Shown: positions 5,936 to 25,133 of the stretch, one piece after another
How positions within the stretch are numbered: the stretch's first letter is position 1
Layout: each line of letters starts with the position of its first letter
Source: a virus
Taxonomy: Duplodnaviria > Heunggongvirae > Uroviricota > Caudoviricetes
Virus record (IMG/VR): IMGVR_UViG_2585427593_000001
Coordinates: 1 to 56,831 of that record
Direction: 5' to 3' (one strand)
Length of the DNA: 56,831 nucleotides
Program-made: the position numbers and the translations under genes
The notes under the pieces: generated by a model
What the model was told of the DNA's origin: nothing
The model's input: only the letters and a program-made list of their open reading frames with translations
Database searches by the model: none

Positions 5936-5953
5936 CCTATTGGTTGCGGCCAC

Positions 5954-6721: not shown

Positions 6722-6760
6722 AGGGCGGCTTGGTCTTGAATGACCGGTCGCCCTTTCTTT
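6722..6760 (+). terminator. Terminator-like hairpin
   Basis: AGGGCGGCTTGGTC...GACCGGTCGCCCT (with G-U pairs) followed by TTCTTTT. Confidence 0.4.
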
Positions 6761-7175
6761 TTCTCCCGGAATTTAGGAACGGCCAGCTTTTGGTCTACCG
6801 GTAAGCAGGAATACTGGCCGGAGGAGATCCATCACCTAGGGTCGCCCAAGGGAAGGGAGAGGAGGTTACACCGTCTATTAGGTGTATCTAACTAGGTTCA
6901 TATAATAATAACTTTACGATAGATGGACGGGAATGAAGACGGGAAAGGAAGCTTCCGGCACGCTCCTAGGCTCGCCGCGGTTCACCTAGGTTCGCTCCCC
7001 AAGGTTAGCCCAAGGGCCGCGCATGTATAGACACCCCGGCGCTGGCTCCCGACCGTGTATTGCCCGCTCCGTCCCCGTCCCTCACCTCGATACTTCCAAG
7101 ACGCATTGCTTTAAAACTAAATCATCGAAAGCGAACGACTTTCGAACAACAAAGCAACGCTGAAAGGTTACTGAA

Positions 7176-9744: not shown

Positions 9745-9772
9745 ACCGCAGCTCTCACGGGCTGCGGTTTTG
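9745..9772 (+). terminator. Rho-independent terminator
   Basis: ACCGCAGC...GCTGCGGT-TTTG. Confidence 0.7.
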
Positions 9773-9851
9773 TCTGGGCTTGGGACTGCCCTAGGGGCGA
9801 GGGCAAGGATTTGGGGAACGGCAGCGCGCCTAGGGATCCGCGGTCAGGAAC

Positions 9852-9878
9852 GGGGTGCCAGGGGAACGGGTATAGGGG
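9852..9878 (+). other. Canonical G-quadruplex motif
   Basis: GGGG-TGCCA-GGGG-AAC-GGG-TATA-GGGG. Confidence 0.55.
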
Positions 9879-10126
9879 TGGTCGCCCCTAGGTGTGCCCT
9901 TGGGCGCGGGCGCGCCTCCCCTGCCCGCGCGCCTACGCGCCCTGGCCCTATGCGTGCATGACGCGCATATGAGCGCTCGATATCGCACGCGATAGCGTCT
10001 GGTCGACTCACAGCGCGTCACTGGCTGGCTTGGTCGCTTTCTGTGACTCGTTACTCATCTCAGCATGCGAAACGCGCTGTATGAGCTTCTATAGCGCTGC
10101 CCGTTTTCAGACATGAGCGCAAACGC

Positions 10127-10152
10127 AAAAAGCGCGCTATCTCTAGCGCGCT
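10127..10152 (-). terminator. Rho-independent terminator of the CC/GG-free gene
   Basis: AGCGCGCTA-TCTC-TAGCGCGCT with an A-run on the left (U-run on the minus strand). Confidence 0.75.
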
Positions 10153-10175
10153 TCATTCTGTTTATGAGTAGACGC

Positions 10176-10775
10176 TTATGCAGCGTCTTTTTCGTTCTCT
10201 TCGCTTTCGTCTTCGATTTCGACTTTCGCAAAGTCGATCTTGAACGCTACGCAAAGCGCTTCTGCGAGTGCTGTTAGATCGACGCTGAAAGCGTTCTTGA
10301 TATCGTGACGATGCTTGATGATATTCAGCGTCAAAAGCGCGTCTCTGCTCGTCTGTGACTGCGCTGCAATCGTCTCTGTCGTTTGAATGATGTTGCGCAC
10401 ATAAACGAGATGCTTGACGCTATCGTCAACAGTAACGTCTCGCGAAATCGATGCTTCGATCATTGCTTGCGTAAGCACTGCATCGTTGCGATAGCAGTTG
10501 ATTGCAGTGCGAAAGATTGCGTATGTGTTTTCGTTCAAGTCTTTTGCGTTCAGCGTCACAGCTTGCGAAGCAAACTTGACGACTTTCTCGCATGCATACA
10601 TTGCTCTTGTGAAGCGTTCAGCGTCGACGTTTGCGTCTGTCAGCATGTCAGCGAGCTTTTCGTTGGAAAGCATCGTAACAAGCTTGCGAAGCTTCTTTTC
10701 GTTGCTTGCGCTGCAGTTGTTCAGAAGAGCAGAGTTAAGACGTTCAGACATTGCGACTGCGAAGACGTTAGACAT
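10176..10775 (-). CDS. Hypothetical protein with no Gly, Pro or Trp, encoded by CC/GG-free DNA
   Basis: 199-aa ORF with purine-rich SD (GAAAGAGAG), its own terminator and recognisable similarity to 7176-8108. Confidence 0.85.
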   Translation of the reverse strand: MSNVFAVAMSERLNSALLNNCSASNEKKLRKLVTMLSNEKLADMLTDANVDAERFTRAMYACEKVVKFASQAVTLNAKDLNENTYAIFRTAINCYRNDAVLTQAMIEASISRDVTVDDSVKHLVYVRNIIQTTETIAAQSQTSRDALLTLNIIKHRHDIKNAFSVDLTALAEALCVAFKIDFAKVEIEDESEENEKDAA

Positions 10776-10920
10776 AGTGTTCTCTCTTTCGTGTAGAGCG
10801 TTGCGTTAGTCGAAAGCGTTGCTGATTTGTTTGTGTCGCTTTCGATGATTTGACTTTATCGAAGTCTTAGAACGGAGCAAATGTTCTGATGGGGATGCCT
10901 TCCGGACTGGCGACGCTCCG

Positions 10921-10945
10921 GTGATCCTATCCTCCTCAGCCAGCT
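10921..10945 (+). repeat. Intergenic spacer repeat (identical 25-mer at 11637-11661; 12-bp core also at 12304 and 13096)
   Basis: GTGATCCTATCCTCCTCAGCCAGCT twice; CCTATCCTCCTC four times. Confidence 0.9.
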
Positions 10946-11058
10946 ATCTAGCTGCGTAGCTATCTTCAGCCGAAAGACGGTAGTGTTTAGCACAGGAATT
11001 TCCCTTAATAATTGAGGATCATCATGATTAAACGGCCGAAGCATTTGCGGGGAAGGGA

Positions 11059-11613
11059 ATGACGGACAATTCGAAATCCTTGGCAGAACTCGCTGCGATG
11101 AGAGCACGCGAGGAACTCACCGATGAGCAGTTTGAGGACGCGCGAAAGTTATTATCGGCGGTGCCAACTGAACCACTGCATTTTCACGCACGCAGAACGC
11201 CGAAGAAAAGCGGAGATGTTGGAAGCGGCATCCTCGTATTGATGATCATCATCGGCGGGTTGTGGTGGCTGGGATCGTCCATCGGGAGCAAGAGCCCGGA
11301 GGAGCAAAAGCAAGAGGCTGCAGCAGAGAGTGCCAAGAAGGCTGAAGACAGGCGAAAAGGTTTCCACTGTCTTTCTGCCTGGGACGGTTCAGACCGTGAG
11401 CTGGTCGATGCTGTGAAAGAGTCGCTACGCGACCCCAGCAGCTTTGAGCATGACGAAACGAGGATCACGCCTGTCAGTCCGCAGGGCCAGCATTTTCTAA
11501 CGATGACTTTCCGCGCGAAGAACGGATTCGGTGGCACCAACGTTGGGGTGGCAACGGGTATGGTCAGGCAATCGGACTGCGCGCTTGTTAAGTGGAACCT
11601 TGTTTCGTCGTAA
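11059..11613 (+). CDS. Single-pass membrane protein
   Basis: TM segment ILVLMIIIGGLWWL; C-terminal LRDPSSF...FRAKNGFGG domain. Confidence 0.75.
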   Translation: MTDNSKSLAELAAMRAREELTDEQFEDARKLLSAVPTEPLHFHARRTPKKSGDVGSGILVLMIIIGGLWWLGSSIGSKSPEEQKQEAAAESAKKAEDRRKGFHCLSAWDGSDRELVDAVKESLRDPSSFEHDETRITPVSPQGQHFLTMTFRAKNGFGGTNVGVATGMVRQSDCALVKWNLVSS

Positions 11614-11752
11614 CCTCCACCCGGCCAACGTTCCCCGTGATCCTATCCTCCTCAGCCAGCTGCCCAGCTATCTAGCCAGGTGTTGCCCTCCCCTTTCACG
11701 AGCGGGCGCGATGTGATCCTATCGGTGGATCGGCTGCTGGATTCGAATCGAC

Positions 11753-11956
11753 ATGGTCAGACCTGTTCTTCTGTGGCTCACCGGACTCCTGTCCTCGTTT
11801 ATGCTTGGAGGTGGTCTGGGTCTGTTCCTGACCTCGCTTGGCGCATTGCCTGGGAAGGATCTCAACATCATGTTCAGCTTCGGGTTCGCTCTGATGTTCG
11901 CCTGCGTCAGGCTGTGGGTTCTCGAAGCCCGATCTCTCCGGAAGCCCGCTCCTTAA
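11753..11956 (+). CDS. Small two-TM membrane protein
   Basis: Hydrophobic 67 aa; ends FACVRLWVLEARS. Confidence 0.6.
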   Translation: MVRPVLLWLTGLLSSFMLGGGLGLFLTSLGALPGKDLNIMFSFGFALMFACVRLWVLEARSLRKPAP

Positions 11957-12078
11957 ACGCCTACCCGGCCGACGTTCTCCGGTGTCCCTCAGCCAGCTTC
12001 CTAGCTACCAAGCCAGGTAGCCCCTTCCAGAATCTCTGCCCGTCAGCTACACGCGGATATCAGCCACGGAATCACCTC

Positions 12079-12279
12079 ATGACCATTTTTCGCGAAATCG
12101 CCCTCTGGATCTCAGGGATTCTGGGTTTTGCATGCCTAGCGGGGGCGATCGCCGCTGCCGTCGAGAAGATTGCAGATCTCCGACAGTGGGATATCAGCCA
12201 TCCGCTGATTCTGGCGTTCCCTCTCATCTTTGTCTGCATCCGCTTGTGGATCCTCGAGCGCCGATCTACCCAGCGATAA
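12079..12279 (+). CDS. Small two-TM membrane protein, paralog of 11753
   Basis: ATG 12079; ends FVCIRLWILERRS. Confidence 0.6.
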   Translation: MTIFREIALWISGILGFACLAGAIAAAVEKIADLRQWDISHPLILAFPLIFVCIRLWILERRSTQR

Positions 12280-12370
12280 CACCCCGGCAGATATTCCCGG
12301 CGCCCTATCCTCCTCTAGCTCTCTCCGCAAAAAGCTGCTTAGCTAGATAGCTGGGTGGGGGAAAAATCTG

Positions 12371-13042
12371 ATGAGCAACATGACTTTGAGGGATTGGCGC
12401 GAACGCGCTGTTTGGCTGACAAGGCATGAGCGCGAGGAGAAAGAGCGCAGAACGCGGATTGAGCTCATAATGGCCGCGGCAACTGTTTTGTCTGCTATCT
12501 CGACGATAGCGGCTGTTGGGGTCGGAGCATTTCAGTATCGAGCAGCTTCGGACGCCCTCACCGCGGCAGATGTGAATCGTAGCCGCGAAGCCTACATTGT
12601 AGGCTGGAATGATGCCTGCCAGGCGTATAGGGCTTTGACAGCGCGACTGCCTGCGTGGGCAATTGTCGAGGATGAACTTCCAAAGTGGGATGACGATCAG
12701 AAACTCAGCGCTCTTCTCGAGCTAAACGGGCGTTTGCAAAAGCTGACGGATCTGAGCCTTAAGCTACTAATCTGGGAGGACCGCGATCATCTCGATAAAT
12801 TGAGCATCGCGATCGGACCGGACCTGGATGCGATGATGCATGGATTGCCAACGCATTCACTTGAAACAGTAAAGTTCTGGACGGCAATTTCTGATGGCTA
12901 CGCGCACTGCGAGAGCGCGATGCGCAAGGCCATCCTCTGGATGAAGGACAACGACCTGAACGGGAAGAAGGCTGATCGGGTCATGGTGTTTAAAACGCGC
13001 GCTGAATTAGAGCGCTACTTAACAGCCCAAAAAGCCAAATAG
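12371..13042 (+). CDS. Membrane-anchored hypothetical protein
   Basis: Charged N-terminus, one TM segment, helical C-terminal part; lower GC. Confidence 0.7.
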   Translation: MSNMTLRDWRERAVWLTRHEREEKERRTRIELIMAAATVLSAISTIAAVGVGAFQYRAASDALTAADVNRSREAYIVGWNDACQAYRALTARLPAWAIVEDELPKWDDDQKLSALLELNGRLQKLTDLSLKLLIWEDRDHLDKLSIAIGPDLDAMMHGLPTHSLETVKFWTAISDGYAHCESAMRKAILWMKDNDLNGKKADRVMVFKTRAELERYLTAQKAK

Positions 13043-13045
13043 CTA

Positions 13046-13075
13046 GATACCTGCCTAGCTATCTAGGCAGGTATC
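13046..13075. terminator. Perfect 13-bp hairpin (terminator-like, no clear U-run)
   Basis: GATACCTGCCTAG-CTAT-CTAGGCAGGTATC directly after the stop codon. Confidence 0.5.
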
Positions 13076-13151
13076 ACTACCCGGATCTGAGGTGCCCTAT
13101 CCTCCTCTCTCGCCCCTATGATAGAATCGCGGTTGTGGATCGGGGGATTGC

Positions 13152-13742
13152 ATGCTGAGGAATATCCTACTGAGCGCGGTCGGTGTCGTCATCGCTGTCG
13201 TCGTTTATGGCTATTGGGATTCAACCCATGTCCGGCAGATCTCAAACGCGCGGGTAACCGCCGAGCTCATCGATCCGATGGGAATGAATTTCGACACCAT
13301 GGATTCCATGCGCCCCTTCAACCGGGGTCAGCTCTTCATCAAGGTTCGCTGGCAGCAACCAGAAAAAGAGCGGGTTGCTGAGATCTACGCGGGCGGTGCG
13401 GTGTTTGAGGATGGCAAGATATTTGTCACTTTCGGCGAGATGTGCCAGCGCAGCGGTAGCACCTGGCTAGCCGAGGCTCATTGGGACTGGCAAGGCGATG
13501 TGCTGACGGATCTGACCTGCTTCATCAAGCTCGACAAGGAATTGCCGGTCGGCCTCGACAATCTCGGGCGAAACATGACCGCTGATATTGACGCTAATGA
13601 CCAGCGGATAGCCAAGATGCAGTTCGATGGGCTCATGTCGCGTGTGTATGCCTCCAAGGTGCCCTATCGCTATGTCACCTGGATCAACACCGGTCTTAAA
13701 CAGGTGAAGGACTGGATAGCCTACCCCTTCCAACGCACCTAG
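13152..13742 (+). CDS. N-terminally anchored (exported) hypothetical protein
   Basis: MLRNILLSAVGVVIAVVVYGYW signal anchor. Confidence 0.7.
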   Translation: MLRNILLSAVGVVIAVVVYGYWDSTHVRQISNARVTAELIDPMGMNFDTMDSMRPFNRGQLFIKVRWQQPEKERVAEIYAGGAVFEDGKIFVTFGEMCQRSGSTWLAEAHWDWQGDVLTDLTCFIKLDKELPVGLDNLGRNMTADIDANDQRIAKMQFDGLMSRVYASKVPYRYVTWINTGLKQVKDWIAYPFQRT

Positions 13743-13848
13743 TTGGCTATCCTGCCCCGAGACAGATATAGATAAATAGCCATGTAGCTATATGTAAGTA
13801 AGTGTTTACTTATCTGCGCAAGGGTGATACGGATTTTCTCACTGCTGA

Positions 13849-13925
13849 CGCGGGGTAGCTCAGTTGGTGAGAGCGCTGGACTCATAATCCAGAGGTCGTC
13901 GGTTCAAGTCCGATCCCCGCAACCA
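13849..13925 (+). tRNA. tRNA with CAU anticodon (Met type), encoded CCA
   Basis: Cloverleaf: D arm GCTC/GAGC, anticodon arm CTGGA-CTCATAA-TCCAG, T loop GGTTCAAGTCC, 3' ACCA. Confidence 0.95.
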
Positions 13926-13957
13926 GCATTCCATGACGATCTCGCTATAAAATAGGC

Positions 13958-14332
13958 ATGAGCAGAAAATACTCCGACCGTCCCGAATACGTGAAAACTG
14001 CCGTGCAAAAGCGTCGGCTGAAGATCAAAGCTATGGCCATTGAGTATAAGGGCGGAGCTTGCTCGCGTTGCGGATACGATCGCTGCCCTGACGCGCTGGA
14101 GTTCCACCATCTTGACCCTGCCGAAAAGGACTTCGGCGTTGGCACCAGCGGTCACTGCCGCTCCTGGGAGCGGGTAAAGGCCGAGCTCGATAAGTGCATC
14201 ATGGTCTGCTCCAACTGCCATCGCGAGATCCAAGTGCTTGGCTATCGCCCAGCTCCAACCCCAACCGCATGGCCGACCTTATCGAAGGGCGTCGTCTCCA
14301 GCTCTCCCTCGCCTTTCCCGAAACCTCGGTAG
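13958..14332 (+). CDS. Free-standing HNH endonuclease
   Basis: CSRC...LEFHH...CSNCH; the C-terminal tail looks low-complexity. Confidence 0.8.
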   Translation: MSRKYSDRPEYVKTAVQKRRLKIKAMAIEYKGGACSRCGYDRCPDALEFHHLDPAEKDFGVGTSGHCRSWERVKAELDKCIMVCSNCHREIQVLGYRPAPTPTAWPTLSKGVVSSSPSPFPKPR

Positions 14333-14363
14333 CTGCATAGCTACCCAGCCCGAAAGCTAATTA

Positions 14364-14570
14364 ATGCTGTCTCGCATTCTTCAGGTCGTCAACGGGGCTG
14401 TCGCCCTTATGGTCGTCGCCCTGACTATAGCCTACGCCTCGGTCGCGATCCCGGTTCTTCTCGGGGTGTTCGTCGGCTTCCTTCTCCTCTTGTGGATCCT
14501 CTCCCATTTGGCCGACGGCGTTTACATCGTGGGTCGCTGGCTTCTGAAGAAGTTCGGCAAGGATCAATAA
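14364..14570 (+). CDS. Small membrane protein
   Basis: Two hydrophobic segments, basic C-terminus. Confidence 0.6.
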   Translation: MLSRILQVVNGAVALMVVALTIAYASVAIPVLLGVFVGFLLLLWILSHLADGVYIVGRWLLKKFGKDQ

Positions 14571-14629
14571 ACAGAAAGGCCCGGCATAAACCGGACCTTT
14601 GGTAGCTCGGTAGCTGGAAAGCTATCGGG

Positions 14630-14893
14630 CTATTTGCGTTTCTGCTCGCGCTTCCAGGCGTTGAAGCACTCGATCAGGAATTTCGACATCGGCATACGGT
14701 GCTGAGCGGCCGTCATCTTGAATTCCAGGTGCCAGTCGTGCGGCATGTTGAAGGTCATGCCGACGGGACGGCTACCTTTCATGTTATTGGCAGCCTCGAC
14801 CGGCTCCTCGACGGCAGCCTGGGGTAGGAAGGAGGAGGGCGCTTGCTTTCTGGGCGGCGCTGCGATGACCGCGCGGGTGGTTTTCTCGTTCAT
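14630..14893 (-). CDS. Ribbon-helix-helix partition protein (type Ib, ParG-like)
   Basis: Coupled to parA; flexible N-terminus, then beta strand MTFNM and two helices. Confidence 0.7.
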   Translation of the reverse strand: MNEKTTRAVIAAPPRKQAPSSFLPQAAVEEPVEAANNMKGSRPVGMTFNMPHDWHLEFKMTAAQHRMPMSKFLIECFNAWKREQKRK

Positions 14894-15537
14894 GCTGCTT
14901 CCTCAAGGCTATTCACGACTGCGACGACTTCAGCGGCCACCAGGTCGGCCGTTTCTTCCAGGCGGCCCGTATTGAGGCCCTGGACCTCTGACAGCGCGTA
15001 GCCGTGGTTCTGGCTCTTCTGGTAGCTATGTTTGAGCGTGATGTTCTGGGATGCGACCCGGAACTCTTTCAGATATTCGCGCGCCTCGGAGATTGCGAGC
15101 TTGGAGTCCGTGATCTTCGACAGGACGAAGATGATCTTCTCCCGCTTCACGCCTTTGGCGACGAGCTCCTTGGCGAACGCGAGCTGCGGCTCGAGGTCAT
15201 CGAGGGAAAGACCGGTCGGCACAACCACGACATGGGAGCGAAGGGCGATTTCGAGAGAGGATTGAACCGAGTCCGGCCGGCCATCGGCGACGACGAGGTT
15301 ATATTCCTCGCGCGGCAGGAAGCTTGGTTGGTGATAAGCCTCGGCTGTGATCTCCGGCTTGATGCCGGCATTGGTGCGGATCCTGCACCATTTGACCGAG
15401 GTCAGCTGTGTAAGGTTGAAGTCGGCAATCAGCACGGTCCAGCCGGCGACCGCATAAGTTCTGGCGATGAGACGGGCGAGGGTGCTTTTACCAACCCCGC
15501 CCTTCTGCGACAGGCACGATATGATCAGGTCAGCCAT
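14890..15537 (-). CDS. parA: Short ParA partition ATPase
   Basis: Deviant Walker A QKGGVGKST; 215 aa with no N-terminal HTH. Confidence 0.92.
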   Translation of the reverse strand: MADLIISCLSQKGGVGKSTLARLIARTYAVAGWTVLIADFNLTQLTSVKWCRIRTNAGIKPEITAEAYHQPSFLPREEYNLVVADGRPDSVQSSLEIALRSHVVVVPTGLSLDDLEPQLAFAKELVAKGVKREKIIFVLSKITDSKLAISEAREYLKEFRVASQNITLKHSYQKSQNHGYALSEVQGLNTGRLEETADLVAAEVVAVVNSLEEAA

Positions 15538-15601
15538 CTATCTATGTCCCTATCTAGCTATCTAAGGCAGTAGCTATATGGCTGATTCTGGTTAAGGGAG
15601 T

Positions 15602-16045
15602 CTATACGCCGAGGTATCCCTTCGCCCTCATTTCGCGCCGGCGTTCGAAATAATCGACATCGGGCGGGCCATCGGCCGGCTCGAACCAGTCGAAATCGAA
15701 GATTTCCTCGAGCTGATCCTTGTCGACCTTCAAGACCCGGTAGCGATAGTCCTTGGCGTCGGTATCGAAGCGATCGTTGACCTCGCACTCCTTCTTCGAG
15801 ATGCCGTGCTTCTTGAACACCTCTTCCTCGTATTCGGCGCCATACTGAGCGAGGTGCATGTTGCTGATCCGGAAGTAGGCCCATTCGATCGGCAAGCGCA
15901 GTTCGCGCACCGGTTCGAAGGTGGGCGAGGTTCCAGGAGCGGCGAACGAGACATCGGGCGCGATCGCGATCCTGATATCGCGCTGGTCGGGGCGAGGGGA
16001 GATCTTTGCCTCCCCAACCCGGCGCGTTCCGCAATAGACCTGCAT
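15602..16045 (-). CDS. Hypothetical protein
   Basis: Coupled to the kinase gene. Confidence 0.65.
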   Translation of the reverse strand: MQVYCGTRRVGEAKISPRPDQRDIRIAIAPDVSFAAPGTSPTFEPVRELRLPIEWAYFRISNMHLAQYGAEYEEEVFKKHGISKKECEVNDRFDTDAKDYRYRVLKVDKDQLEEIFDFDWFEPADGPPDVDYFERRREMRAKGYLGV

Positions 16046-16602
16046 CAGTGAACCCGCCCGATCACGGCGACGAGCTTGTCCAGCAGATCCTGGCGAGCAG
16101 CTGCAGGCTCCAGTCCGCGCGCCAGGCCATCGTTGTTGATGCGGGCGTGGCAGAACTCGGGATTGAAGCGGTCGAACTCATACTGTGAGGGGCCGGCAAG
16201 CGGATTGACGATCTCGAGGACGAGGGCGCCGTGATTACGCCAGTAGAGACCCTGCTCGCGCCGGACGGAGCCGAAGACGGAGTAGGAGCCCTCGGGCCTG
16301 GCGTTGTGGCTCATGATCGGGATGATGTCGCCGCCGAACTTCTCTTCGAAGGCGTTGCCGATCTCACCCAGGATCTCGCGGACTTCCCATTCGCGACCGT
16401 TGAGCGTGACCTTCTGCTTCTTGCCCTCCTGGGTGAAAACCTGTTCGGCCGTCAGTCCCAGGTAGTCCATGCCGATCTTGCGCAGCGGCAGACCGTCGTC
16501 AGCCAGCTCGTGGCCGTAGACCTCATTGATGATATCGGCAGCGGTCGACTTGCCGGATCCAGGATGCCCGCAAAGGGCGATGTTCTTGGGGATGTGGTGC
16601 AT
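16045..16602 (-). CDS. Deoxynucleoside monophosphate kinase-like P-loop protein
   Basis: IALCGHPGSGKST; PLRK..; REILGEIG pattern typical of phage dNMP kinases. Confidence 0.75.
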   Translation of the reverse strand: MHHIPKNIALCGHPGSGKSTAADIINEVYGHELADDGLPLRKIGMDYLGLTAEQVFTQEGKKQKVTLNGREWEVREILGEIGNAFEEKFGGDIIPIMSHNARPEGSYSVFGSVRREQGLYWRNHGALVLEIVNPLAGPSQYEFDRFNPEFCHARINNDGLARGLEPAAARQDLLDKLVAVIGRVH

Positions 16603-16699
16603 AGTTGCTCCTGCTACGTAAGTGCTTACTTACTATTTATAGCGGGCAGGGGCAGCTTGCTGCATACATAGCTCGGTATCTGCCGAGCTATCTAGCTAT

Positions 16700-16885
16700 C
16701 TAGGCATAAACGATGGGCTCGTCGTCCTCGCCGGCGAGCTGGGCGATACGCATGGCAAGCGAGCGGCAGCGCCGCTCGAGCTCGGCGTTTTCTTCCTGCA
16801 GGCGCTCGAGTTCGGCATGCAGGTGATCCGCGGACATGATGGAGTGCCCGCGTTCGTTGAAGAAGTGGATCGGATCGACCTTCAT
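16700..16885 (-). CDS. Small coiled-coil hypothetical protein
   Basis: Coupled to the helicase stop codon. Confidence 0.55.
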   Translation of the reverse strand: MKVDPIHFFNERGHSIMSADHLHAELERLQEENAELERRCRSLAMRIAQLAGEDDEPIVYA

Positions 16886-18456
16886 TATGCAGCCTTGCGT
16901 TCGAAGATTCCCCAGGGGAAGTTGTCGTTTGCGGGCAGGATGCCTTCGACAAAGCCAGGCGTTGCCCGGACGATGCCTTCGCGGCGCCGTGCATGATCGC
17001 GCAGCGTGCCGTTCAGGTTGATGGAATAGTCAGCGATGAACGTGACATTCGGCCCAAACTTCTTATAGCGAAGACCGCGACCGATCCGCTGACGAAGTTC
17101 GACCTCTGCCTTCATTCCACCACCGAGCTGCACCAGGCCGATCGCCGGGCAGTCGACACCGACATCGAGGATCTTGGTGCCGATGACGACATCGATCCGG
17201 CCGGCAGCCAGGTCAGCCAGGCGCGCCTTGCGCTCCTTCTGGTCATCGTCGCCGCGCAGGAACACGGCGCGCAGCCCGAAACGCTTGTAGAGTGCCATCA
17301 GGTTGTCGCCGGCCTCGGTGCGAGCGACCAGGGTGAGGGTAGGGAGTCCGTAGCGCTTCGCCATCATGGCGTCTTCGAGCATGACCTTGTGAAGAGGGGA
17401 GGTGTCCCTGACGTAGGCCAGCGTATAGGCGCGCTCGAAGGGTGAGGACTTGTGCAGGCCCTTCGGCGCCTCGCAATCGCGGAAGAGGAAGTAGGGCTTG
17501 GCGAGAATGCCGCGCTCGATCAGCAGCGACTCCGGAATGTCGATCAGAACGGGACCGAAGGCGGCCATCAGGCGCATGTTGTCTGCAGCCGAATCCTTCA
17601 TGAAGGGCGTGGCCGTCAGAGCAACGCGGATCGTGGCGTTCTTGCAGTGACGCAGGATCTCGTAATAGGACGTGCCGCCCGCTTCATGGGCTTCCTCACC
17701 GATCACGACCTCGACCAGCTCCAGAAACTTCAAGATGGCCGCCCGGCGCTTGGTCTTCTTGTCGAAGCGCTCCTGTGCGAGGCGAGCGATCTCGGCTTCA
17801 CTGATTTCGGAGTTGCCGTTCTTGCGCTGGTGCGCAGACTTGACGACTGCGCGGCGCTCGGCAGCGAGATCCGGAACCTCGAGCGCCTGGACAAGGGTCT
17901 GCACCATGCCAAGGTTAACGCCGCGCACAAACTTCATTTCGCCGTCGCCGATCTGGCCGGTGTTGAAGCCGATCTCCTGCAGCTGGTCGTCCATCTGGTA
18001 GAGCAGGATCCCGCGCGTGGTCAGAAACAGGGTCATGCGCTTGAAGCGCGCCATGATGAGCTTGGCGATCTTCGACTTGCCACCGCCCGTGGCGACGCGG
18101 ATGATGCCGGCGCCGTGCTTTTCGACCTGGCGCAGCGACTTCATCTGGTAGTCGTAGCGCGGATCGTCGTTGCCGAGCTCGTCAACGATCGGGTTTTCGG
18201 GGCCGAGCGGCGTGGCGTGCGGCTTGAAGACCTCATAGACCGTGTGGCCGATGCGCTCGAGCTCAGCCTTGACGGTATAGGCAAAGCCTGCCGGAAAGGT
18301 ATTCCTGGTGATCGAGAAGAAGCTTGCCGTGCCGGAGAAGCCAAGTCCGCCCTCTTCCTTATAGGAGAGGAGGGAGGCCACGAAGTTCTTCACTTCCTTC
18401 GGAGGATCTCGAAGCTGGGCAACGACGGCGTTGCGGGCGATCGTTACGACTGCCAT
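16885..18456 (-). CDS. Superfamily 2 helicase (UvsW-like)
   Basis: ATGGGKS, EEAH, LTATP, GVDCP, QRIGRGLR. Confidence 0.9.
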   Translation of the reverse strand: MAVVTIARNAVVAQLRDPPKEVKNFVASLLSYKEEGGLGFSGTASFFSITRNTFPAGFAYTVKAELERIGHTVYEVFKPHATPLGPENPIVDELGNDDPRYDYQMKSLRQVEKHGAGIIRVATGGGKSKIAKLIMARFKRMTLFLTTRGILLYQMDDQLQEIGFNTGQIGDGEMKFVRGVNLGMVQTLVQALEVPDLAAERRAVVKSAHQRKNGNSEISEAEIARLAQERFDKKTKRRAAILKFLELVEVVIGEEAHEAGGTSYYEILRHCKNATIRVALTATPFMKDSAADNMRLMAAFGPVLIDIPESLLIERGILAKPYFLFRDCEAPKGLHKSSPFERAYTLAYVRDTSPLHKVMLEDAMMAKRYGLPTLTLVARTEAGDNLMALYKRFGLRAVFLRGDDDQKERKARLADLAAGRIDVVIGTKILDVGVDCPAIGLVQLGGGMKAEVELRQRIGRGLRYKKFGPNVTFIADYSINLNGTLRDHARRREGIVRATPGFVEGILPANDNFPWGIFERKAA

Positions 18457-18471
18457 TGGTTTTCCTTCAAC

Positions 18472-18519
18472 TTGCCTATTGCGTTCTGCGGAGGTTATAG
18501 TAAGTAACTACTTACTTAT
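18472..18519 (+). promoter_or_regulatory. Sigma70-like promoter overlapped by the palindromic operator
   Basis: TTGCCT-N18-TATAGT; operator GTAAGTAACTACTTACTTAT at 18500-18519, between divergent genes. Confidence 0.6.
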
Positions 18520-18533
18520 TCGGAACCGTCCAT

Positions 18534-19280
18534 ATGCGCAAGATTGAATATCTGAACGTCGCCGTCACCGAGCTGCGGAAGAACCCCTGGAACACCAACA
18601 AGGTGAGCCCGGAAAATGAACTCAAGATCCGCGAGAGCCTCAGTCGCAATGGCATGTTCAAGCCCATTGTCGTTCGCGAAGTCGAGGGTGTGCCTGGATT
18701 TGAGATCCTGGGCGGCGAGCACCGCTGGGAACAGGCGATCGAACTTGGCGAATCTGAGGTGCCGGTTGCCAACCTCGGCATCATCTCTGAGAAGCAGGCC
18801 AAGGAAATCGGTCTCATCGACAACGCTCGATATGGCTCCGACGATACCTTGGGCTTGGCTGATCTGCTGAAGGAGATCGGTGATGTTCCTGAACTGCAAA
18901 GCTTTCTTCCTTATGGGCAGGCTGACATTGACGCAATTTTCAATGCGTCAGTTATAGCGCTCGACGACTTGGAGATTGACGAAAGCTTTGAAAAGACGCC
19001 GGAAACGGAAGAGGAAGCGCCGCTTCCCAAGGTAGCAAAGACCCACGCTCAGATGCGCTTCAAGGTTCCGATCGCTGATGCCGAGCGCATCACTGCCCTG
19101 ATTGCCAAGACCCAGAAGGATTTCGGCTACACGACCGAAGACGAGCTCACCAACGCCGGTGATGCGCTGATCCACCTTCTCGGCGATTACCTGCGGCGCC
19201 CGGCCAGCACTCTTGCCTATAACGACGACGAAATCGAAGCCACGCTCGATGCGGCGCTGGCAAACCCGGATGATATCTGA
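18534..19280 (+). CDS. ParB/Srx N-terminal domain protein
   Basis: NPWNTN, GMFKPIVVR, ILGGEHRW, DN.ARYG. Confidence 0.85.
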   Translation: MRKIEYLNVAVTELRKNPWNTNKVSPENELKIRESLSRNGMFKPIVVREVEGVPGFEILGGEHRWEQAIELGESEVPVANLGIISEKQAKEIGLIDNARYGSDDTLGLADLLKEIGDVPELQSFLPYGQADIDAIFNASVIALDDLEIDESFEKTPETEEEAPLPKVAKTHAQMRFKVPIADAERITALIAKTQKDFGYTTEDELTNAGDALIHLLGDYLRRPASTLAYNDDEIEATLDAALANPDDI

Positions 19281-19954
19281 TGTCTGAACCGAACCACGCC
19301 ATTGAAATTGTCGATATCGGCTGGCTGAAGGAATACGAGGCCAACGCCAAGAAGCACCCGGACGACGAAGTCGCCAAGCTTGCGACCTCGATCGAGAAGT
19401 TCGGCTGGACGGCGCCGATCATCGTCTGGAAGGATGGCGTCATCATCGCCGGTCACGGCCGGCGCAAGGCAGCTCTCAGGCTCGGCCTGAAGAAGGTGCC
19501 AGTCATCGTCCGCCGCGACCTGACCAAGGCCCAGGCCGACGCGCTGCGCCTGGCTGACAACCGTGTCGCCGGCACGCAGTATGACCAGGCCGCGATCCAG
19601 ATCGAACTGCAGCGCCTGGCTGATGAACTGGATGGCTCGTTCGAGCTGTCCGACATGGGCTTCACCGAAAAGGAGCTCGACTTCTCGCTCGGGGATCTGG
19701 ACGAGATCTCCGACGACCTCTTCGTGGACGACATCTCCAGCGCTGTCGAGACCCAGAAGGAAGAGAACAAGGCCAAGGTTGAAGCGGTCGACGACACGGC
19801 CGCTCCCGTTGGCGATGCCCTCGGCTTCAAGCGCGTCACGATCGAGGAGAGCCGCAAGCTCAAGGGCTTGATGTCCCAGATCGAGACCAGGACCGGCCGC
19901 AAGGGCGTCGATGCCCTGATCTATGTGTTTTCTGCTGCTTTGGCAGCTAAGTAA
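19280..19954 (+). CDS. ParB/Srx N-terminal domain protein
   Basis: YEANAKKH, SIEKFGWTAPI, IIAGHGRRKAA, RLADNR. Confidence 0.88.
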   Translation: MSEPNHAIEIVDIGWLKEYEANAKKHPDDEVAKLATSIEKFGWTAPIIVWKDGVIIAGHGRRKAALRLGLKKVPVIVRRDLTKAQADALRLADNRVAGTQYDQAAIQIELQRLADELDGSFELSDMGFTEKELDFSLGDLDEISDDLFVDDISSAVETQKEENKAKVEAVDDTAAPVGDALGFKRVTIEESRKLKGLMSQIETRTGRKGVDALIYVFSAALAAK

Positions 19955-19964
19955 GGACTTACAT

Positions 19965-20393
19965 ATGTCGAATGTCGTCTCACTCCTCACCCGCAAGCCC
20001 TGGCACGAGGAGCAGGCTGAAAAGCGGCGTCAGCGCCGGGCCGAGGGTCGTAAGAAGAGGAAGGAGCTGTCCGAGGCAAAGGCCGATCACAAGGCAACCC
20101 AGCTCGCCATGCTCGACGAGATCCGCAAGCTGGTCGAGGAGGATAAGTTCGAAGGGCTGCTGATCGTCGGACGCGATCCGAAGACCAAGAATTTCTACAA
20201 CGACTTCGTCCTCGATGTCACGACCGTCCCTCTCAACGACTACTACGCCTATTCGGGTGTCCTGGCGACGCTCGCTACCGAACTGAACCAGTGCGCCACG
20301 ATGGCGCCGGCGCTGATGGCCGACGGGTCGACCCTCGATCCGTATATGGAGCCGCCCGAGGTCGTCTACATGGAAGGCGATTTCGATGACTGA
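19965..20393 (+). CDS. Hypothetical protein
   Basis: ATG 19965 next to an operator-like site; overlaps the next start. Confidence 0.7.
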   Translation: MSNVVSLLTRKPWHEEQAEKRRQRRAEGRKKRKELSEAKADHKATQLAMLDEIRKLVEEDKFEGLLIVGRDPKTKNFYNDFVLDVTTVPLNDYYAYSGVLATLATELNQCATMAPALMADGSTLDPYMEPPEVVYMEGDFDD

Positions 20394-21015
20394 CTACATC
20401 ATCACCCGCAAGTTCAACACCTCTGTCGAGCGCACGCCGCGCGTCCTCGAAATCGCTGAAGCCTTCGGGCTTGGCCTCTCCGACAAGGAGTTCGTGGTCT
20501 ATGACGGGCTGAAGATCACCATCAACCTCGGCGATGTCGTCTACATCAAGGGCCAGTCCGGCTCCGGCAAGTCGCTGCTGCTCAAGGATCTCACCGCCCA
20601 GATGACCGCAGGCGGCCTCAAGGTCGCCGATCTGAACAAGATCGAGCTGGAAGAGCGCCCGGTCATTGAGCTGGTCGGCAAGTCGACCGTCGAGGCGACC
20701 GATCTGCTCGCCAAGGCCGGCATCTCTGACGCCTACATCTACCTGCGCAAGCCTTCGGAACTCTCCGACGGCCAGCGCTATCGGCTGAAGCTCGCAATCC
20801 TGATGGCGTCCGACGCCGATGTCTGGATCGCTGACGAGTTCGGCGCCGTGCTTGATCGCACGACGGCAAAGCTCGTCGCCTTCTCGATGCAGAAGGTCGC
20901 CCGGCGCATGGGCAAGACCTTCATGATCGCAACCACTCATGACGACCTGGTGGACGAACTCGGGCCGTCGCTGACCATCACCAAGCGCTTCCGCGAGAAG
21001 GTCGAGGTCGCATGA
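20386..21015 (+). CDS. Soluble ABC-type ATPase
   Basis: Walker A GQSGSGKS, signature LSDGQ, Walker B WIADEF, H-loop ATTH. Confidence 0.9.
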   Translation: MTDYIITRKFNTSVERTPRVLEIAEAFGLGLSDKEFVVYDGLKITINLGDVVYIKGQSGSGKSLLLKDLTAQMTAGGLKVADLNKIELEERPVIELVGKSTVEATDLLAKAGISDAYIYLRKPSELSDGQRYRLKLAILMASDADVWIADEFGAVLDRTTAKLVAFSMQKVARRMGKTFMIATTHDDLVDELGPSLTITKRFREKVEVA

Positions 21016-21305
21016 ACTACGGTCAGGCACTTGAATTCGTGAAGCGGGGAGGGGTCGCCAGGCGCCAGGAATGGAAGCCGCAGCAGATCATCTACCTCGA
21101 GCAGGGCTCGCGCGACGCATCGAAGCTACGCGGTCACCAGCGCCTGGCTGCCGTCCTCAACGCCGAGCTCTTCCAGGACGGCGACAAGGGCACGGTCACG
21201 CGCCTGCCGAACATCAACATGAAGACGCCGACCGGCGAGACGCTGACCGGATTTAACCCCTCCCAGCTCGATCAGCTGGCCGAGGATTGGGAGATTGTGG
21301 AATGA
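21012..21305 (+). CDS. DUF2829 family protein (Tad2-like)
   Basis: MNYGQALE..K.G..ARR.EW and C-terminal PSQ.D.LAEDW.IV. Confidence 0.8.
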   Translation: MNYGQALEFVKRGGVARRQEWKPQQIIYLEQGSRDASKLRGHQRLAAVLNAELFQDGDKGTVTRLPNINMKTPTGETLTGFNPSQLDQLAEDWEIVE

Positions 21306-21499
21306 GCAAGTTCGTCACCGCCAAGGATATCGTCATTCCGGCCGGCACCGAGGTCGATTTCGCGCCAGTCAGGACCGAATACTTCACCCGTCACGGCGAG
21401 GTGATCATCGGCTTCGACAAGGATACGACCGGCAGCCTGCGCTTCGATTGGGAAGAAGCTGAGCAGCTCGGCCTCATTCGGGAGAGCGCCGATGGCTAA
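21302..21499 (+). CDS. Hypothetical protein
   Basis: ATGA overlap; 65 aa. Confidence 0.6.
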   Translation: MSKFVTAKDIVIPAGTEVDFAPVRTEYFTRHGEVIIGFDKDTTGSLRFDWEEAEQLGLIRESADG

Positions 21500-21815
21500 T
21501 CGCGGCTGGTATGGGGTCGACTTCGACGGGACGCTCGCGACCTACGACACCTGGAAGGGCATCGATCACGTCGGCGAACCGATCTGGCCGATGATCAACC
21601 GCGTCAAGAACTGGCTGGCTGCCGGCAAGGAAGTCCGCATCTTCACCGCGCGCTGCGCTGGGCCGGAAGATTGCAAGCCGGCGATCGAGAAGTTCTGCCT
21701 GGAACACATCGGCCAGGTGCTGCCGATCACCAACATCAAGGACTTCGGCTTGATCGAACTCTGGGACGATCGCGCGGTTCGGGTCGAAGAAAACACTGGT
21801 CAGAGGATCCTCTAA
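21492..21815 (+). CDS. HAD-superfamily phosphatase-like protein
   Basis: Motif I VDFDGTL, motif II IFTAR, terminal WDDRA. Confidence 0.8.
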   Translation: MANRGWYGVDFDGTLATYDTWKGIDHVGEPIWPMINRVKNWLAAGKEVRIFTARCAGPEDCKPAIEKFCLEHIGQVLPITNIKDFGLIELWDDRAVRVEENTGQRIL

Positions 21816-21958
21816 TGGCCGATGTGATAATCTTCATCATCCTGCTGCTTGTATTCGTCATCTGGTTTATGCGCGAAGACATTGCGCACGCATATGAAGA
21901 ATGGATCGTCAGGAAGCAGCTTGAGAAGCTCAGGGGACGCGACCGCGATGTCTCCTGA
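21815..21958 (+). CDS. Small membrane protein (47 aa)
   Basis: TAATG coupling; MADVIIFIILLLVFVIWF. Confidence 0.5.
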   Translation: MADVIIFIILLLVFVIWFMREDIAHAYEEWIVRKQLEKLRGRDRDVS

Positions 21959-22817
21959 TATCGAGACACTGATCGAGCGAAACGCGAGCCCTCGCGCGAA
22001 TTTCGCGCTCACGGATGAGATGTTCGTGGAGCGCGGAACCAAGGCGGATTGGGATCTGCTGCACGATCTCCACTACAAGGCCGAGGGCCTGCCGATCGGG
22101 CCGCAGTTCTGGAAGCTGACGCTGCACGGGCAGACGATCGGCGTGCTCGTCGTCGGCATGCCGAAGGGTATGCTGAAGGAGCGCCACCTGGTCTTTAAGA
22201 AGCTGGCGCCTGGCTCCGGCGAGACGACGCTGACCAACACCAACCGCTACCTCTACATCAACGCCAATTTCCGGGTGGTCTCGCGCTTCGTCATCGACAC
22301 GATGTTCCGCGGGATCGGCGCCGGCTACCGGATGATGAACCTGGTCGCCCGTATGGACGGTCACAAGTTCATGGAGATCCAGTCCTCGATGTCGAAGTTC
22401 AACGCCTTCGGCCAGAAGGCAGGCTTCCGCTTCGTCAAGCCGATGAACGCCAACAAGTTCGACGCCGGCATGAAGTTCTTCCGCGGCAATTTCGAATCCA
22501 CGCCCCAGGACTTTGAGGCCGTGGTCAACGAGCTGGAGAACTCGCCGCGCTTCGAACAGCTGTTTGCAGCCTGCAAGGAGTTTTACCAGAAGAACTCGGC
22601 GACCGAGAACACCGGTGCGGCCCGCGATGGTGCTGACGCGCGTGTGGCAGCCATGAGCCCGCGGGATGTCATCAAGGGCATTCAGCAGATGAGCCTGGCC
22701 TCGCCGATGTATGGTGTCTTCCAGAACCCGGATCTCGGCCGCACTCTGCCGGAGCGTTTGCCTCTAACTGCATTTGATGGGCAGCAGCCGACGGAAAGGC
22801 TGGTGCTCAATGGCTAA
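21948..22817 (+). CDS. GNAT-fold acyltransferase (Mom-like candidate)
   Basis: Acetyl-CoA-binding motif A SRFVIDTMFRGIGAG; LHDLHY; ATG 21948. Confidence 0.75.
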   Translation: MSPDIETLIERNASPRANFALTDEMFVERGTKADWDLLHDLHYKAEGLPIGPQFWKLTLHGQTIGVLVVGMPKGMLKERHLVFKKLAPGSGETTLTNTNRYLYINANFRVVSRFVIDTMFRGIGAGYRMMNLVARMDGHKFMEIQSSMSKFNAFGQKAGFRFVKPMNANKFDAGMKFFRGNFESTPQDFEAVVNELENSPRFEQLFAACKEFYQKNSATENTGAARDGADARVAAMSPRDVIKGIQQMSLASPMYGVFQNPDLGRTLPERLPLTAFDGQQPTERLVLNG

Positions 22818-23149: not shown

Positions 23150-23215
23150 GAAGACCCTCCGGACGGAAAAGCCGCGTCCGCGGAAATAAGGAATTGCTTA
23201 CTTTTGGAAGAGAGA

Positions 23216-23872
23216 ATGTCTGAGGAAGTCGAAAAGGAAGAGGCAAAGGACGCGGCTGCCGCGGGCGCCAAGCGCATGTCTGATGCTGACTTCGCCGAAG
23301 CAAAGGAGCTTTACGAGCTCGGCAAGGCCGGGCTGTCGGAGCTCGCGGACCAGTTCGGTGTTTCGCGCCAGGCACTCTCCCAGCGTTTAAAGAGCGCAGG
23401 AGCGGTTAAGGGCTCTCGGGCGCACGAGGTAGCGGCTGCGGCTAAGAAGGCTGTCACCGGCGCTGCTGGGTCGTCTGCTGCTGCAACCGCGGAGCGCTTC
23501 GCGGACAAGCGCGGCGAATGGATCGAAGAGACGCGCATCACTGGTTTTCGCCAGCTCAAGCTTGCGCGCCAGCTCGCCCAGAAGGTGGTTCAGGACGCTC
23601 TGTCTGCCGGCCGTTCGATCGCGACCACGGATGATGAGCTGAAGGCCGTCATGCGCCTCAACAAGATCCTTTGCGACAACATCGAGTCCACGCTCAACCT
23701 GCTCGAAGCCGACAAGCACGTCGATGAGAACGACCTGCCGTCGCTCAACATCGAGGATCTGACCAACGAAGACATCCTGAAGCACCATATCGGCACCGGC
23801 GCGCTCCCCGAGGGCTCGACGGTCCAGGACATGCTGGCTGACGAAGCCGATCCGGGACTGACCGATGAGTGA
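23216..23872 (+). CDS. Probable terminase small subunit
   Basis: N-terminal HTH (LSELADQFGVSRQALSQR), helical body, directly upstream of terL. Confidence 0.7.
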   Translation: MSEEVEKEEAKDAAAAGAKRMSDADFAEAKELYELGKAGLSELADQFGVSRQALSQRLKSAGAVKGSRAHEVAAAAKKAVTGAAGSSAAATAERFADKRGEWIEETRITGFRQLKLARQLAQKVVQDALSAGRSIATTDDELKAVMRLNKILCDNIESTLNLLEADKHVDENDLPSLNIEDLTNEDILKHHIGTGALPEGSTVQDMLADEADPGLTDE

Positions 23873-25133
23873 GATCGCCTCTCTCAAGCTTCATCGCCTG
23901 CAGAAGGTGGTCATGAACGACCCGCACCGCTTCCGGGTGGTCGTCGCCGGCCGTCGTTGGGGCAAGACGCAGGTCTCGAAGATCTCGCTCATCAAGTTTG
24001 CCGCGGTAAGGCAGAAGCAGCTGATCTGGTATGTGGCGCCGACCTACGCGATGGCGCGCGACCTGATGTGGAAGCCGCTCAAGGCGGCCATGCCCAAGGG
24101 CTGGATCAAGAAGATCAACGAGAGCCGCATGGAGATGCTGCTCATCAATGGCTCCGAAATCTCGCTGAAGGGCGCCGACAAGCCGGACTCGCTGCGCGGT
24201 GTCGGTCTCGATTTCGTGGTCATCGACGAAGCCCAGGACATCAAGGAAGAGACCTGGGAAGAAGTCCTGATGCCGACGCTGGCGACGACCAACGGCCGGG
24301 CGCTCTTCATCGGCACGCCGAAGTCATACAACTGGCTCTATCATCGCTTCATGCTCGGTCAGCGCGGCCCGATGGTCAAGGATCATCGCAAGCGCCTGGT
24401 CGCCAATGAATGGATGAGCTGGCAGTTCCCGACCATCACCTCGCCGTTCATCCCGCGTAAGGAAATCGAGGCGCGTCGCCGCGACATGGATCCTCGCTCG
24501 TTCCGTCAGGAATTCGAGGCGAGCTTCGAAACCATGTCCGGCCGCGTCTACTATCCGTTCAACCGCAATGAACATGTCGGCGACTATCCGTTCAATCCGA
24601 AGCTGCCGATCTATATCGGCATGGACTTCAACATCGATCCGATGTCCTCGATCATCATCCAGGAGCAGCCCGACGGCGAGATCTGGGTGGTCGACGAGGC
24701 GGTCATGTATGGTTCGAACGTCCAGGAGACGGCCGACGAACTGTCCAGGCGCTACTTCCGCTACTTCAACCAGATCGCGATCTTCCCGGACCCGGCCGGC
24801 AACAACCGCAACCACGACCGCGGTGAGTCCTCGCTCGACATCCTGCGCGAAGCCGGTTTCAAGCGGATCTACTTCAAGCGCAAGCACCCGGCCGTGCAGG
24901 ACCGCATCAACGCGGTCAACCGTCTGCTCTACACTGCAGAGGGCGAGACCAGGCTGCGCGTCAATTCCACCTGCCGCAAGTTCATCGATAGCCTCGAGCA
25001 GACGATCTATAAGGAAGGCACCAACGAGGTCGACAAGACCCAGGGCAACGAACACGCGACCGACGCTTTCGGCTATTACGCGGACTTCCGTCATCCGATG
25101 AAGAAGAGCCTCATTCTTGGTGTTTCGATTTAA
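23865..25133 (+). CDS. terL: Terminase large subunit
   Basis: AGRRWGKT, VIDEAQ, GTPK, nuclease GMDFNIDPM, HATDAFGY. Confidence 0.95.
   Translation: MSEIASLKLHRLQKVVMNDPHRFRVVVAGRRWGKTQVSKISLIKFAAVRQKQLIWYVAPTYAMARDLMWKPLKAAMPKGWIKKINESRMEMLLINGSEISLKGADKPDSLRGVGLDFVVIDEAQDIKEETWEEVLMPTLATTNGRALFIGTPKSYNWLYHRFMLGQRGPMVKDHRKRLVANEWMSWQFPTITSPFIPRKEIEARRRDMDPRSFRQEFEASFETMSGRVYYPFNRNEHVGDYPFNPKLPIYIGMDFNIDPMSSIIIQEQPDGEIWVVDEAVMYGSNVQETADELSRRYFRYFNQIAIFPDPAGNNRNHDRGESSLDILREAGFKRIYFKRKHPAVQDRINAVNRLLYTAEGETRLRVNSTCRKFIDSLEQTIYKEGTNEVDKTQGNEHATDAFGYYADFRHPMKKSLILGVSI

Follow-up and report, generated by a model that had tools for sequence, protein, structure and literature searches.

The closest known systems to the locus described here are the first-step-transfer region of phage T5 and the early region of phage T7. 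In T7, host-type promoters at the entering end are followed first by gene 0.3 (Ocr), which is read inward. T5, a siphophage of ~120 kb, has fixed ends and carries a long direct terminal repeat (DTR), whose genes are expressed first, from host promoters; its first-entering DNA is exposed to restriction and to clustered regularly interspaced short palindromic repeats (CRISPR) immunity, and its A2 is a small DNA-binding protein. DNA-targeting defences strike T5 only in the first-entering region, and this DNA has been proposed to be free of the sites of T5's own nuclease (bioRxiv 10.1101/866236). In the Autographiviridae, target sites in the early-injected region decide restriction sensitivity (PMC12455610). 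Site avoidance in first-injected phage DNA is known only for sites of 4-8 bases. Here we describe a complete transcription unit from which a whole dinucleotide step, CC/GG, has been excluded. It lies in IMG/VR record IMGVR_UViG_2585427593_000001, of which positions 1-56,831 were analysed (the window); the window is the first 56.8 kb of a Rhizobium phage-plasmid genome assembled as a single contig of 120,831 bp. We document the purge of CC/GG, its conservation, its three natural states and the anatomy of the purged unit; the purge could not be traced to the neighbouring ParB/ABC/GNAT genes.

The element resembles T5 as a ~120-kb siphophage with fixed ends and a long DTR, and no sequence or family relation to T5 A1 or A2 was found. 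Its repeat would measure 3.6-4.4 kb compared with 10 kb in T5, and only one unit of 0.8-1.4 kb is target-free, yet free of a whole dinucleotide. Compared with T7 gene 0.3, a two-base step is avoided rather than specific sites of 6-8 bases, the amino-acid alphabet has been reshaped, and the model of the protein points to a winged helix rather than to a DNA mimic. The exclusion has cost this protein three amino acids and persists across a large phage-plasmid family of plant-associated bacteria. We know of no precedent for a two-base target reshaping the alphabet of a protein.

The purged zone (10101-10874; 774 bp, 47% G+C) spans promoter to terminator of a minus-strand gene at 10176-10775 and contains a single CC/GG, at 10665. 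Over the 120.8-kb genome, CC/GG occurs once per 7.2 bp on average, and the second-longest gap is 74 bp. A preliminary description of the window had pointed to one CC/GG-free gene, and the effect is stronger than was claimed there. When codons for the same protein were drawn from the phage's own usage, 57 +/- 5 CC/GG were expected in the coding sequence, where one is observed; one or fewer occurred in none of 20,000 simulations. The encoded protein, P0001 (199 amino acids), contains no glycine, proline or tryptophan, for which the probability at this length is ~4e-13. The codons GCC and ACC, both preferred by the phage elsewhere, are used for none of 28 alanines and none of 14 threonines. All other di- and trinucleotides are present in the zone. 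Generic restriction-site avoidance was rejected, as many palindromes without CC/GG (GCGC with 10 copies, TCGA, GTCGAC, GCATGC, CTGCAG) occur at or above the genome rate; their retention shows that the purge is neither a general avoidance of restriction sites nor a property of the protein alone. Few other genes lie on the minus strand, and those that do are not purged.

A profile search with P0001 gave 113 clusters at 50% identity. Glycine, proline and tryptophan are missing from ~80 of the 111 clusters checked, while ~20 clusters, mostly the weakest or longest matches, contain 4-11% of these residues, and one such gene has ordinary CC/GG. As these distant members have normal glycine, proline and tryptophan, the fold tolerates the residues and the constraint lies on the nucleic acid. 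The purge is thus selected on nucleotide sequence and not on protein. A need at the protein level, such as a fold or a translation free of the three residues that escapes tRNA-cleaving defences, would match the composition of P0001, as would erosion by a CC-specific deaminase, and the phage encodes tRNAs and an RtcB ligase. Against both, synonymous codons, codon junctions and non-coding flanks are purged too, distant members carry the residues, P0001 is under strong purifying selection, and the edges of the zone are sharp and conserved. We regard such causes as extremely unlikely; a tRNA- or amino-acid-level cause and mutational erosion were rejected on the synonymous and flank purge and on the distant members.

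The purged zone runs from the -35 element of a sigma-70-type promoter to just beyond an intrinsic terminator, so that it roughly equals promoter plus transcript. The promoter (10853-10880, minus strand) consists of a -35 TTGCTC, a 16-nt spacer and a -10 TAAAGT and is conserved between lineages; the pair with its 16-nt spacer was found in at least nine lineages when the upstream regions of 13 were aligned. It was absent from the list of a generic promoter scan and was found by the lineage comparison. The 5' leader (10776-10852, minus strand), read from the aligned upstream regions, contains a ribosome-binding site without GG, GAAAGAGAGAA, which across the aligned lineages reads GAAAGAGA, and a hairpin at 10810-10845. 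Read by eye, the stem pairs of this hairpin change together between lineages (for instance CGAAAGCG/CGCTTTCG, TCAAGAAC/GTTCTTGA and TCAAGACG/CGTCTTGA); RNAalifold predicted no pairs on the 5' leaders, from an input alignment that was out of register. The terminator (10129-10154, minus strand) has a stem in which only G and C alternate, with a run of T behind it. Upstream of the promoter, a conserved CC/GG-rich element (10888-10936) contains GGCATCCCC and GGAGGATAGG, and a run starting with GGAGG stands with GGCATCCCC in the alignment. The lineage encodes a sigma-70-family sigma factor (B1VFA 98760-99404; NZ_CP090351.1 108054-108680). Since it has its own sigma factor, most phage genes may use phage-specific promoters and the purged gene a host-type one.

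Relatives of the region 9900-22817 include the Rhizobium siphophages RHph_X66, B1VFA and V1VFA-S and the R. beringeri plasmid pRlX6, with 92-95% identity over 73-86% of the query; the Sinorhizobium plasmid pLM21S1 is 82% identical to it. The purge is present at every orthologous locus examined, down to 44-50% protein identity; these were the loci of X66, B1VFA, V1VFA-S, pLM21S1, pRlX6, RHEph10, a Shinella plasmid, and metagenome and isolate contigs, RHph_Y2_11 and N1_10 being left out. It is kept in orthologues from 97% to below 30% identity and in G+C backgrounds of 38-63%. Its extent always comprises the gene with ~100-340 bp upstream and 60-630 bp downstream, and the longest runs without any CC/GG measure 1,279 bp in V1VFA-S and 1,334 bp in pLM21S1. 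In RHEph10 (L014) the real CC/GG-free gene is the minus-strand open reading frame 29195-29809, while GenBank places the coding sequence gp097 on the opposite strand; the annotation is in conflict in two regions of this genome, 26170-27060 and 29105-29785. There, the annotated frame of gp103 gives an Arg/Gly-rich, seemingly wrong product, and a P0001-like domain lies in another frame.

P0001 has no family in Pfam or PHROGs scans, and neither have the other genes of the terminal repeat. Its predicted structure (mean predicted local distance difference test score, pLDDT, of 90) is helical in its N-terminal part and winged-helix-like in its C-terminal half; the chain closes with an acidic tail and two alanines. 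Residues ~65-181 match winged-helix domains of kleisin, cullin, H1/H5 linker histone, ORC and MarR with VIA Z scores of 7-8.3, and Foldseek against the PDB returned nothing at E <= 1e-3; the winged-helix assignment is suggestive, not decisive. If the model is right, the family would demonstrate that a winged-helix-like fold is attainable with no glycine, proline or tryptophan. The acidity of P0001 is confined to the last ~15 residues, and Ocr and ArdA are absent among the matches listed, which does not exclude that family. Like T5 A2, P0001 may bind DNA, its site of action being the terminal DNA of the phage itself. A paralogue of 310 amino acids is encoded 2 kb from the purged gene (7176-8108, plus strand); it shares the C-terminal helical and winged-helix part, carries an acidic and Ala-rich N-terminal extension and has a normal CC/GG content (84 CC, 62 GG). 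The family profile, run against the phage's own genome, found only the purged gene; the paralogue emerged from profile-profile comparison alone (hhalign E 3.7e-4 over 127 columns). Second profile matches lie at the same place in RHEph10 and in the Methylobacterium plasmid, and the 310-residue paralogue has a match of 325 amino acids in AFDB.

The place of the purged unit in the virion can be estimated from two relatives. B1VFA and V1VFA-S are phage-plasmid-like, with parA, parB and repC and fixed ends, and their published DTR lengths are 3,605 and 3,939 bp (PMC12509600). We mapped B1VFA base-to-base onto V1VFA-S and sought a 3,605-bp segment that matches 3,939 bp. Among 94,986 testable starts, only B1VFA 39,631-39,809 to 43,235-43,413 fits within 6 bp; the best placement gives a difference of 335 bp compared with 334 bp reported, while the runner-up (327 bp) lies inside head genes. 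The fitting segment ends 74-252 bp upstream of the start codon of the purged gene, and the edge of the purged zone falls within this range. In window coordinates, the DTR would extend from ~6.5 kb to ~10.9 kb. Its left boundary zone maps to 6473-6651, inside a conserved non-coding region of ~1.3-1.5 kb (~5120-7170) that is kept in position in all relatives; a motif search near this boundary gave no second copy of the element upstream of the promoter. The right boundary would lie at ~10850-11030, and homology with the relatives breaks at 10945. Since the published lengths fit one genome placement, the purged unit probably stands at the right end of the DTR, with its promoter outermost and reading inward against almost all other genes. 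The GenBank start points of B1VFA and V1VFA-S were rejected as physical ends because they are arbitrary, and a 95-bp terminal repeat of the window was rejected as a physical repeat because it is an assembly overlap.

Across the family, the purge exists in three natural states: complete purge, loss confined to sense-strand GG, and complete relaxation with the gene inverted. In most lineages both CC and GG are missing. Three lineages (L037, L025 and L040) have regained 10, 16 and 28 sense-strand CC but 0, 1 and 2 GG, while full synonymous relaxation would be expected to give ~40 CC to 21 GG. The L037 protein is 97% identical to P0001, and the family tree places the regain of CC in two or three independent events. 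In the third state, represented by a Methylobacterium oryzae phage-plasmid, the homologue lies on the plus strand with 53 CC and 18 GG, and hence orientation and purge go together. Its protein contains 2 glycines, 1 proline and no tryptophan, a legacy of the purged state. As CC but not GG was regained on the sense strand, CC on the template strand (sense GG) is the harder constraint. This asymmetry fits an agent that marks, nicks or blocks at 5'-CC-3', with the worst effect on the template strand, and it does not fit simple double-strand recognition as by a restriction enzyme or of a CRISPR protospacer-adjacent motif (PAM).

Taken together, we consider that there is an even chance that the stretch is a pre-early leader gene kept free of the targets of a CC-directed, template-sensitive agent acting at the DNA level. 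The stretch would form a self-contained pre-early ('leader') unit, made up of a sigma-70 promoter, a hairpin, a ribosome-binding site without GG, an open reading frame and an alternating-GC terminator. Being located at the terminus with the promoter outermost, it probably enters the cell ahead of the rest of the phage DNA and is transcribed first, presumably by host RNA polymerase, as are T7 gene 0.3 or the T5 pre-early genes. Selection would keep the unit usable from promoter to terminator while some agent attacks CC/GG-bearing DNA; this agent would act on 5'-CC-3' and do most harm on the template strand, in the manner of a base lesion, a nick or a roadblock. The preliminary description had called the gene an entry gene, which agrees with the placement at the DTR end and with a host-type promoter reading inward, while the polarity of entry is a matter of deduction. 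Such an arrangement implies an agent of two-base specificity, so far undescribed, acting on DNA or, less likely, on RNA. Study of the system, for which the three natural states are on offer, might uncover an undescribed DNA modification or nuclease, or a new principle by which phage DNA is read on entry.

Several points weigh against a leader gene shielded from a DNA-level agent. No CC-specific enzyme has been identified, and CC/GG abounds in the remaining genes of the repeat. The placement of the DTR depends on two published lengths and on boundaries assumed to be homologous in both phages, and the order in which the ends enter is an inference. The Z scores of 7-8 for a winged helix in the P0001 model can reflect a common arrangement of helices. 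A model in which both DNA strands are cut would not by itself predict the strand asymmetry, and a dislike of GG at the level of RNA fits the asymmetry equally well.

On this last explanation, an mRNA without GG, and usually without CC, would be needed to evade a GG-directed RNase, anti-Shine-Dalgarno binding or an RNA-binding repressor. A parallel exists in mRNAs without ACA, which escape MazF. In its favour, the constraint that persists is on sense-strand GG, the zone is about coextensive with the transcript, and GG is avoided even in the ribosome-binding site. On the other hand, most lineages lack CC as well, although the antisense strand should be irrelevant to an RNA, and the zone takes in the promoter and, in some lineages, 200-340 bp of upstream and as much as 630 bp of downstream sequence; moreover, we know of no GG-specific RNase in these hosts. 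An RNA-level cause loses ground only through the promoter inside the zone and the additional lack of CC in most lineages, and we judge it very unlikely.

The sites avoided in the genome as a whole bear on explanations that invoke DNA cleavage. GTAC is absent from the 120.8-kb genome, where ~170 copies are expected; it is also absent from B1VFA, V1VFA-S and the Methylobacterium phage-plasmid with its 66% G+C, and present twice in pRlX6. The avoidance of GTAC is thus lineage-wide, across host genera. Among hexamers bearing CC/GG, AGGCCT and GGGCCC do not occur in the genome, CCCGGG occurs once, and TGGCCA and CCATGG twice each. These five, together with GACGTC and CACGTG, have 0-2 copies each in the Rhizobium-infecting members, while all but CACGTG reach 27-117 copies in the Methylobacterium relative, which points to a host-specific restriction pressure on the Rhizobium members.

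The purge might accordingly be an avoidance of host immunity, in which the first-entering DNA lacks CC/GG-dependent targets (GC-rich restriction sites, or the CRISPR PAMs CC/NGG) until its product disarms the defences. The precedents of T5 and T7, the strong restriction-type avoidance (GTAC 0 of 170 expected, several hexamers at 0-2 copies) and the surrounding counter-defence genes (Tad2-like, Acb2/Tad1, NAD salvage) speak for it. The zone, however, retains other GC-rich palindromes (GCGC ten times; GTCGAC, GCATGC and CTGCAG present), the purge persists over 38-63% G+C, which points to a cause within the phage lineage, recognition of double strands would not give an asymmetry between CC and GG, and the DNA mimics Ocr and ArdA are not among the fold matches listed for P0001. 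We consider this explanation unlikely. Counter-defence genes are plentiful nearby: the Tad2-like gene of the window lies at 21012-21305, an Acb2/Tad1-like gene adjoins the purged gene in relatives (L009 8329-8700, L012 8054-8485), and B1VFA 13589-16080 holds an NAD-salvage pair of NadM/Nudix and nicotinamide phosphoribosyltransferase.

A cleavage activity could also be the phage's own. An early or injected nickase or nuclease would shred host DNA at CC-type sites, the site-free leader would survive, and the rest of the genome would enter later or shielded. T5 A1 is said to have been proposed by Davison as such a nuclease that spares its own DNA. In chlorella viruses, the nickase/methylase pair Nt.CviPII/M.CviPII, with the site CCD, degrades host DNA; as in the explanation considered here, an enzyme acts at a CC-type site of 2-3 bases and the virus DNA is kept safe, but there safety comes from methylation and not from site avoidance, and no search for homologues of the pair was made. 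The trait is intrinsic to the phage lineage, template nicks stop RNA polymerase, and sites on one strand cannot yield double-strand breaks. The lineage-wide absence of GTAC, Methylobacterium member included, shows self-avoidance of a short site, and the phage encodes two DNA ligases and several HNH endonucleases. Nevertheless, no candidate nuclease could be assigned, the other terminal-repeat genes carry CC/GG, and the Methylobacterium relative would have had to lose the system. An entry of the DNA in two steps would also be required, for which there is no evidence here; two-step entry is a property of T5, and the present element, unlike T5, can also live as a plasmid. A self-sparing nuclease therefore seems quite unlikely.

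The preliminary description had itself proposed that a module of two ParB-N proteins, an ABC ATPase and a GNAT protein next to the terminase modifies the genome while a target-free entry gene is spared. The module as such is present. Two ParB/Srx N-terminal-domain proteins of 248 and 224 amino acids (18534-19280 and 19280-19954, plus strand; phrog_723, phrog_930) match Pfam PF02195 with 41.3 and 33.2 bits (cut-off 26.3), and a soluble ABC-type ATPase of 209 amino acids (20386-21015, plus strand; phrog_293) matches ABC_tran with 52.7 bits (cut-off 25). The module further includes the Tad2-like (DUF2829) protein mentioned above (plus strand), a candidate anti-Thoeris sponge matching PF11195 with 60 bits, which the preliminary description had not mentioned. 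The last member, a protein of 289 amino acids (21948-22817, plus strand), is recognised as GNAT at the level of the fold only: it has no Pfam match, including the Acetyltransf_1 hidden Markov model. Downstream, a small-terminase-like DNA-binding protein and the large terminase (23204-25133, plus strand) were assigned by Pfam and PHROGs.

For the AlphaFold model of the 289-residue protein (pLDDT 76), the PDB matches are GNAT folds only (E 1e-4), with NAT10, TmcA and Mu Mom among them; every Foldseek match at E <= 1e-3 is a GNAT or includes a GNAT domain. With NAT10 and Mom, the TM-scores reach only ~0.3. The best 120 of 783 matches are 65-97% identical to the protein. Its RGIGAG motif, invariant or nearly so in 18 sequences, matches the acyl-CoA-binding motif R/Q-x-x-G-x-G/A, and relatives are named 'ABC-type ATPase with predicted acetyltransferase domain' by the Joint Genome Institute (JGI).

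On the modification hypothesis, the module would modify virion DNA at C or G in CC/GG before or during packaging. In a refined form, the modified base would be the C of CC, with an N4-acyl group as the candidate product of a split ATPase and GNAT acting like NAT10/TmcA. NAT10 and TmcA join a P-loop ATPase to a GNAT domain and acetylate cytidine, and Mom modifies phage DNA. All three share the GNAT fold with the 289-residue protein, but the TM-scores are low, there is no sequence-family match, and the ATPase is here a separate ABC-type protein. Phage ParB-like proteins activate post-replicative DNA modification with a dinucleotide preference, NTC/NTG (PMC13229309). In the ParB-dependent 5mYOX thymine dioxygenase systems, short ParB-like proteins activate the DNA-modifying enzyme, and the modification prefers NTC/NTG and covers 10-35% of a base (PMC13229309); in contrast to these, the TET/JBP, kinase and transferase enzymes of those pathways are missing from the present genome, and the partner would be the ABC ATPase with the GNAT.

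Besides these structural neighbours, the JGI name and the known activators, the template-strand asymmetry fits a lesion on the C of CC, and the trait tracks the phage lineage over hosts of very different G+C. Several results stand against a role of the module. The Methylobacterium relative (NZ_CP090351.1) has the complete module, with a GNAT 66% identical, but in its whole 116,758 bp the longest stretch lacking CC/GG, CC alone or GG alone does not exceed 165 bp. An intact GNAT is retained in the lineages with 10-28 regained CC. No N6/N4 or C5 methyltransferase, TGT or TET/JBP was found at E <= 1 in the whole genome. The strong genome-wide avoidance of CC/GG-bearing hexamer palindromes suggests that the DNA is exposed to restriction and argues against a blanket protective modification of CC/GG, with which it would be unnecessary. 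Finally, all other early genes would need to be read from modified templates.

On the co-occurrence that the preliminary description had proposed as a test, all purged genes with enough context share one synteny (ParA, helicase, two ParB, ABC, Tad2, GNAT, terminase), but they belong to one phage lineage, so that it is not independent evidence, and the module also exists without the purge. Overall, the entry-gene half of the earlier proposal has gained support, while the half in which the module modifies the genome has not. As the GNAT neighbours include cytidine acetyltransferases and ParB-like activators exist, the module idea, though weakened, keeps some weight; we rate modification by the module as rather unlikely, yet place it first among the candidate agents, ahead of host immunity, a phage nickase and an RNA-level cause. 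Its boldest form, in which the virions of 115-125 kb Hyphomicrobiales phage-plasmids would carry a new 5'-CC-3' cytosine modification written by a ParB-guided split ABC-ATPase/GNAT, the mark on the template strand would stop host RNA polymerase and the terminal pre-early gene would be unmodifiable, is unlikely. If true, a modification of CC would explain why glycine, proline and tryptophan had to be dispensed with as the protein evolved.

A CC/GG-dense block extends over 9770-9950, immediately beyond the terminator of the purged unit. The preliminary description had reported a saturated block left of 9950, and its density is borne out by two 100-bp bins at ~9776-9975 with 26 and 31 CC/GG, compared with a genome mean of 14. 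A dense block after the purged zone is kept in nearly all relatives. It includes a G-quadruplex-type motif (9852-9878, plus strand) of four G3-4 runs with short loops. Only three such motifs exist in the 56.8-kb window, and one is found at this position in 12 of 17 related loci; in these 12 loci the G runs of the motif beside the purged gene are always on the template strand. A 137-aa fragment from a Rhizobium ruizarguesonis contig of 882 kb (P0045) matches residues 87-172 of the P0001 family, followed by an unrelated Gly/Pro-rich tail, and is probably the remnant of such an element in a large replicon. On the other side of the purged unit, beyond the break in homology, window positions 10945-13742 carry variable small genes, one of them with a SHOCT domain, and then tRNA genes.

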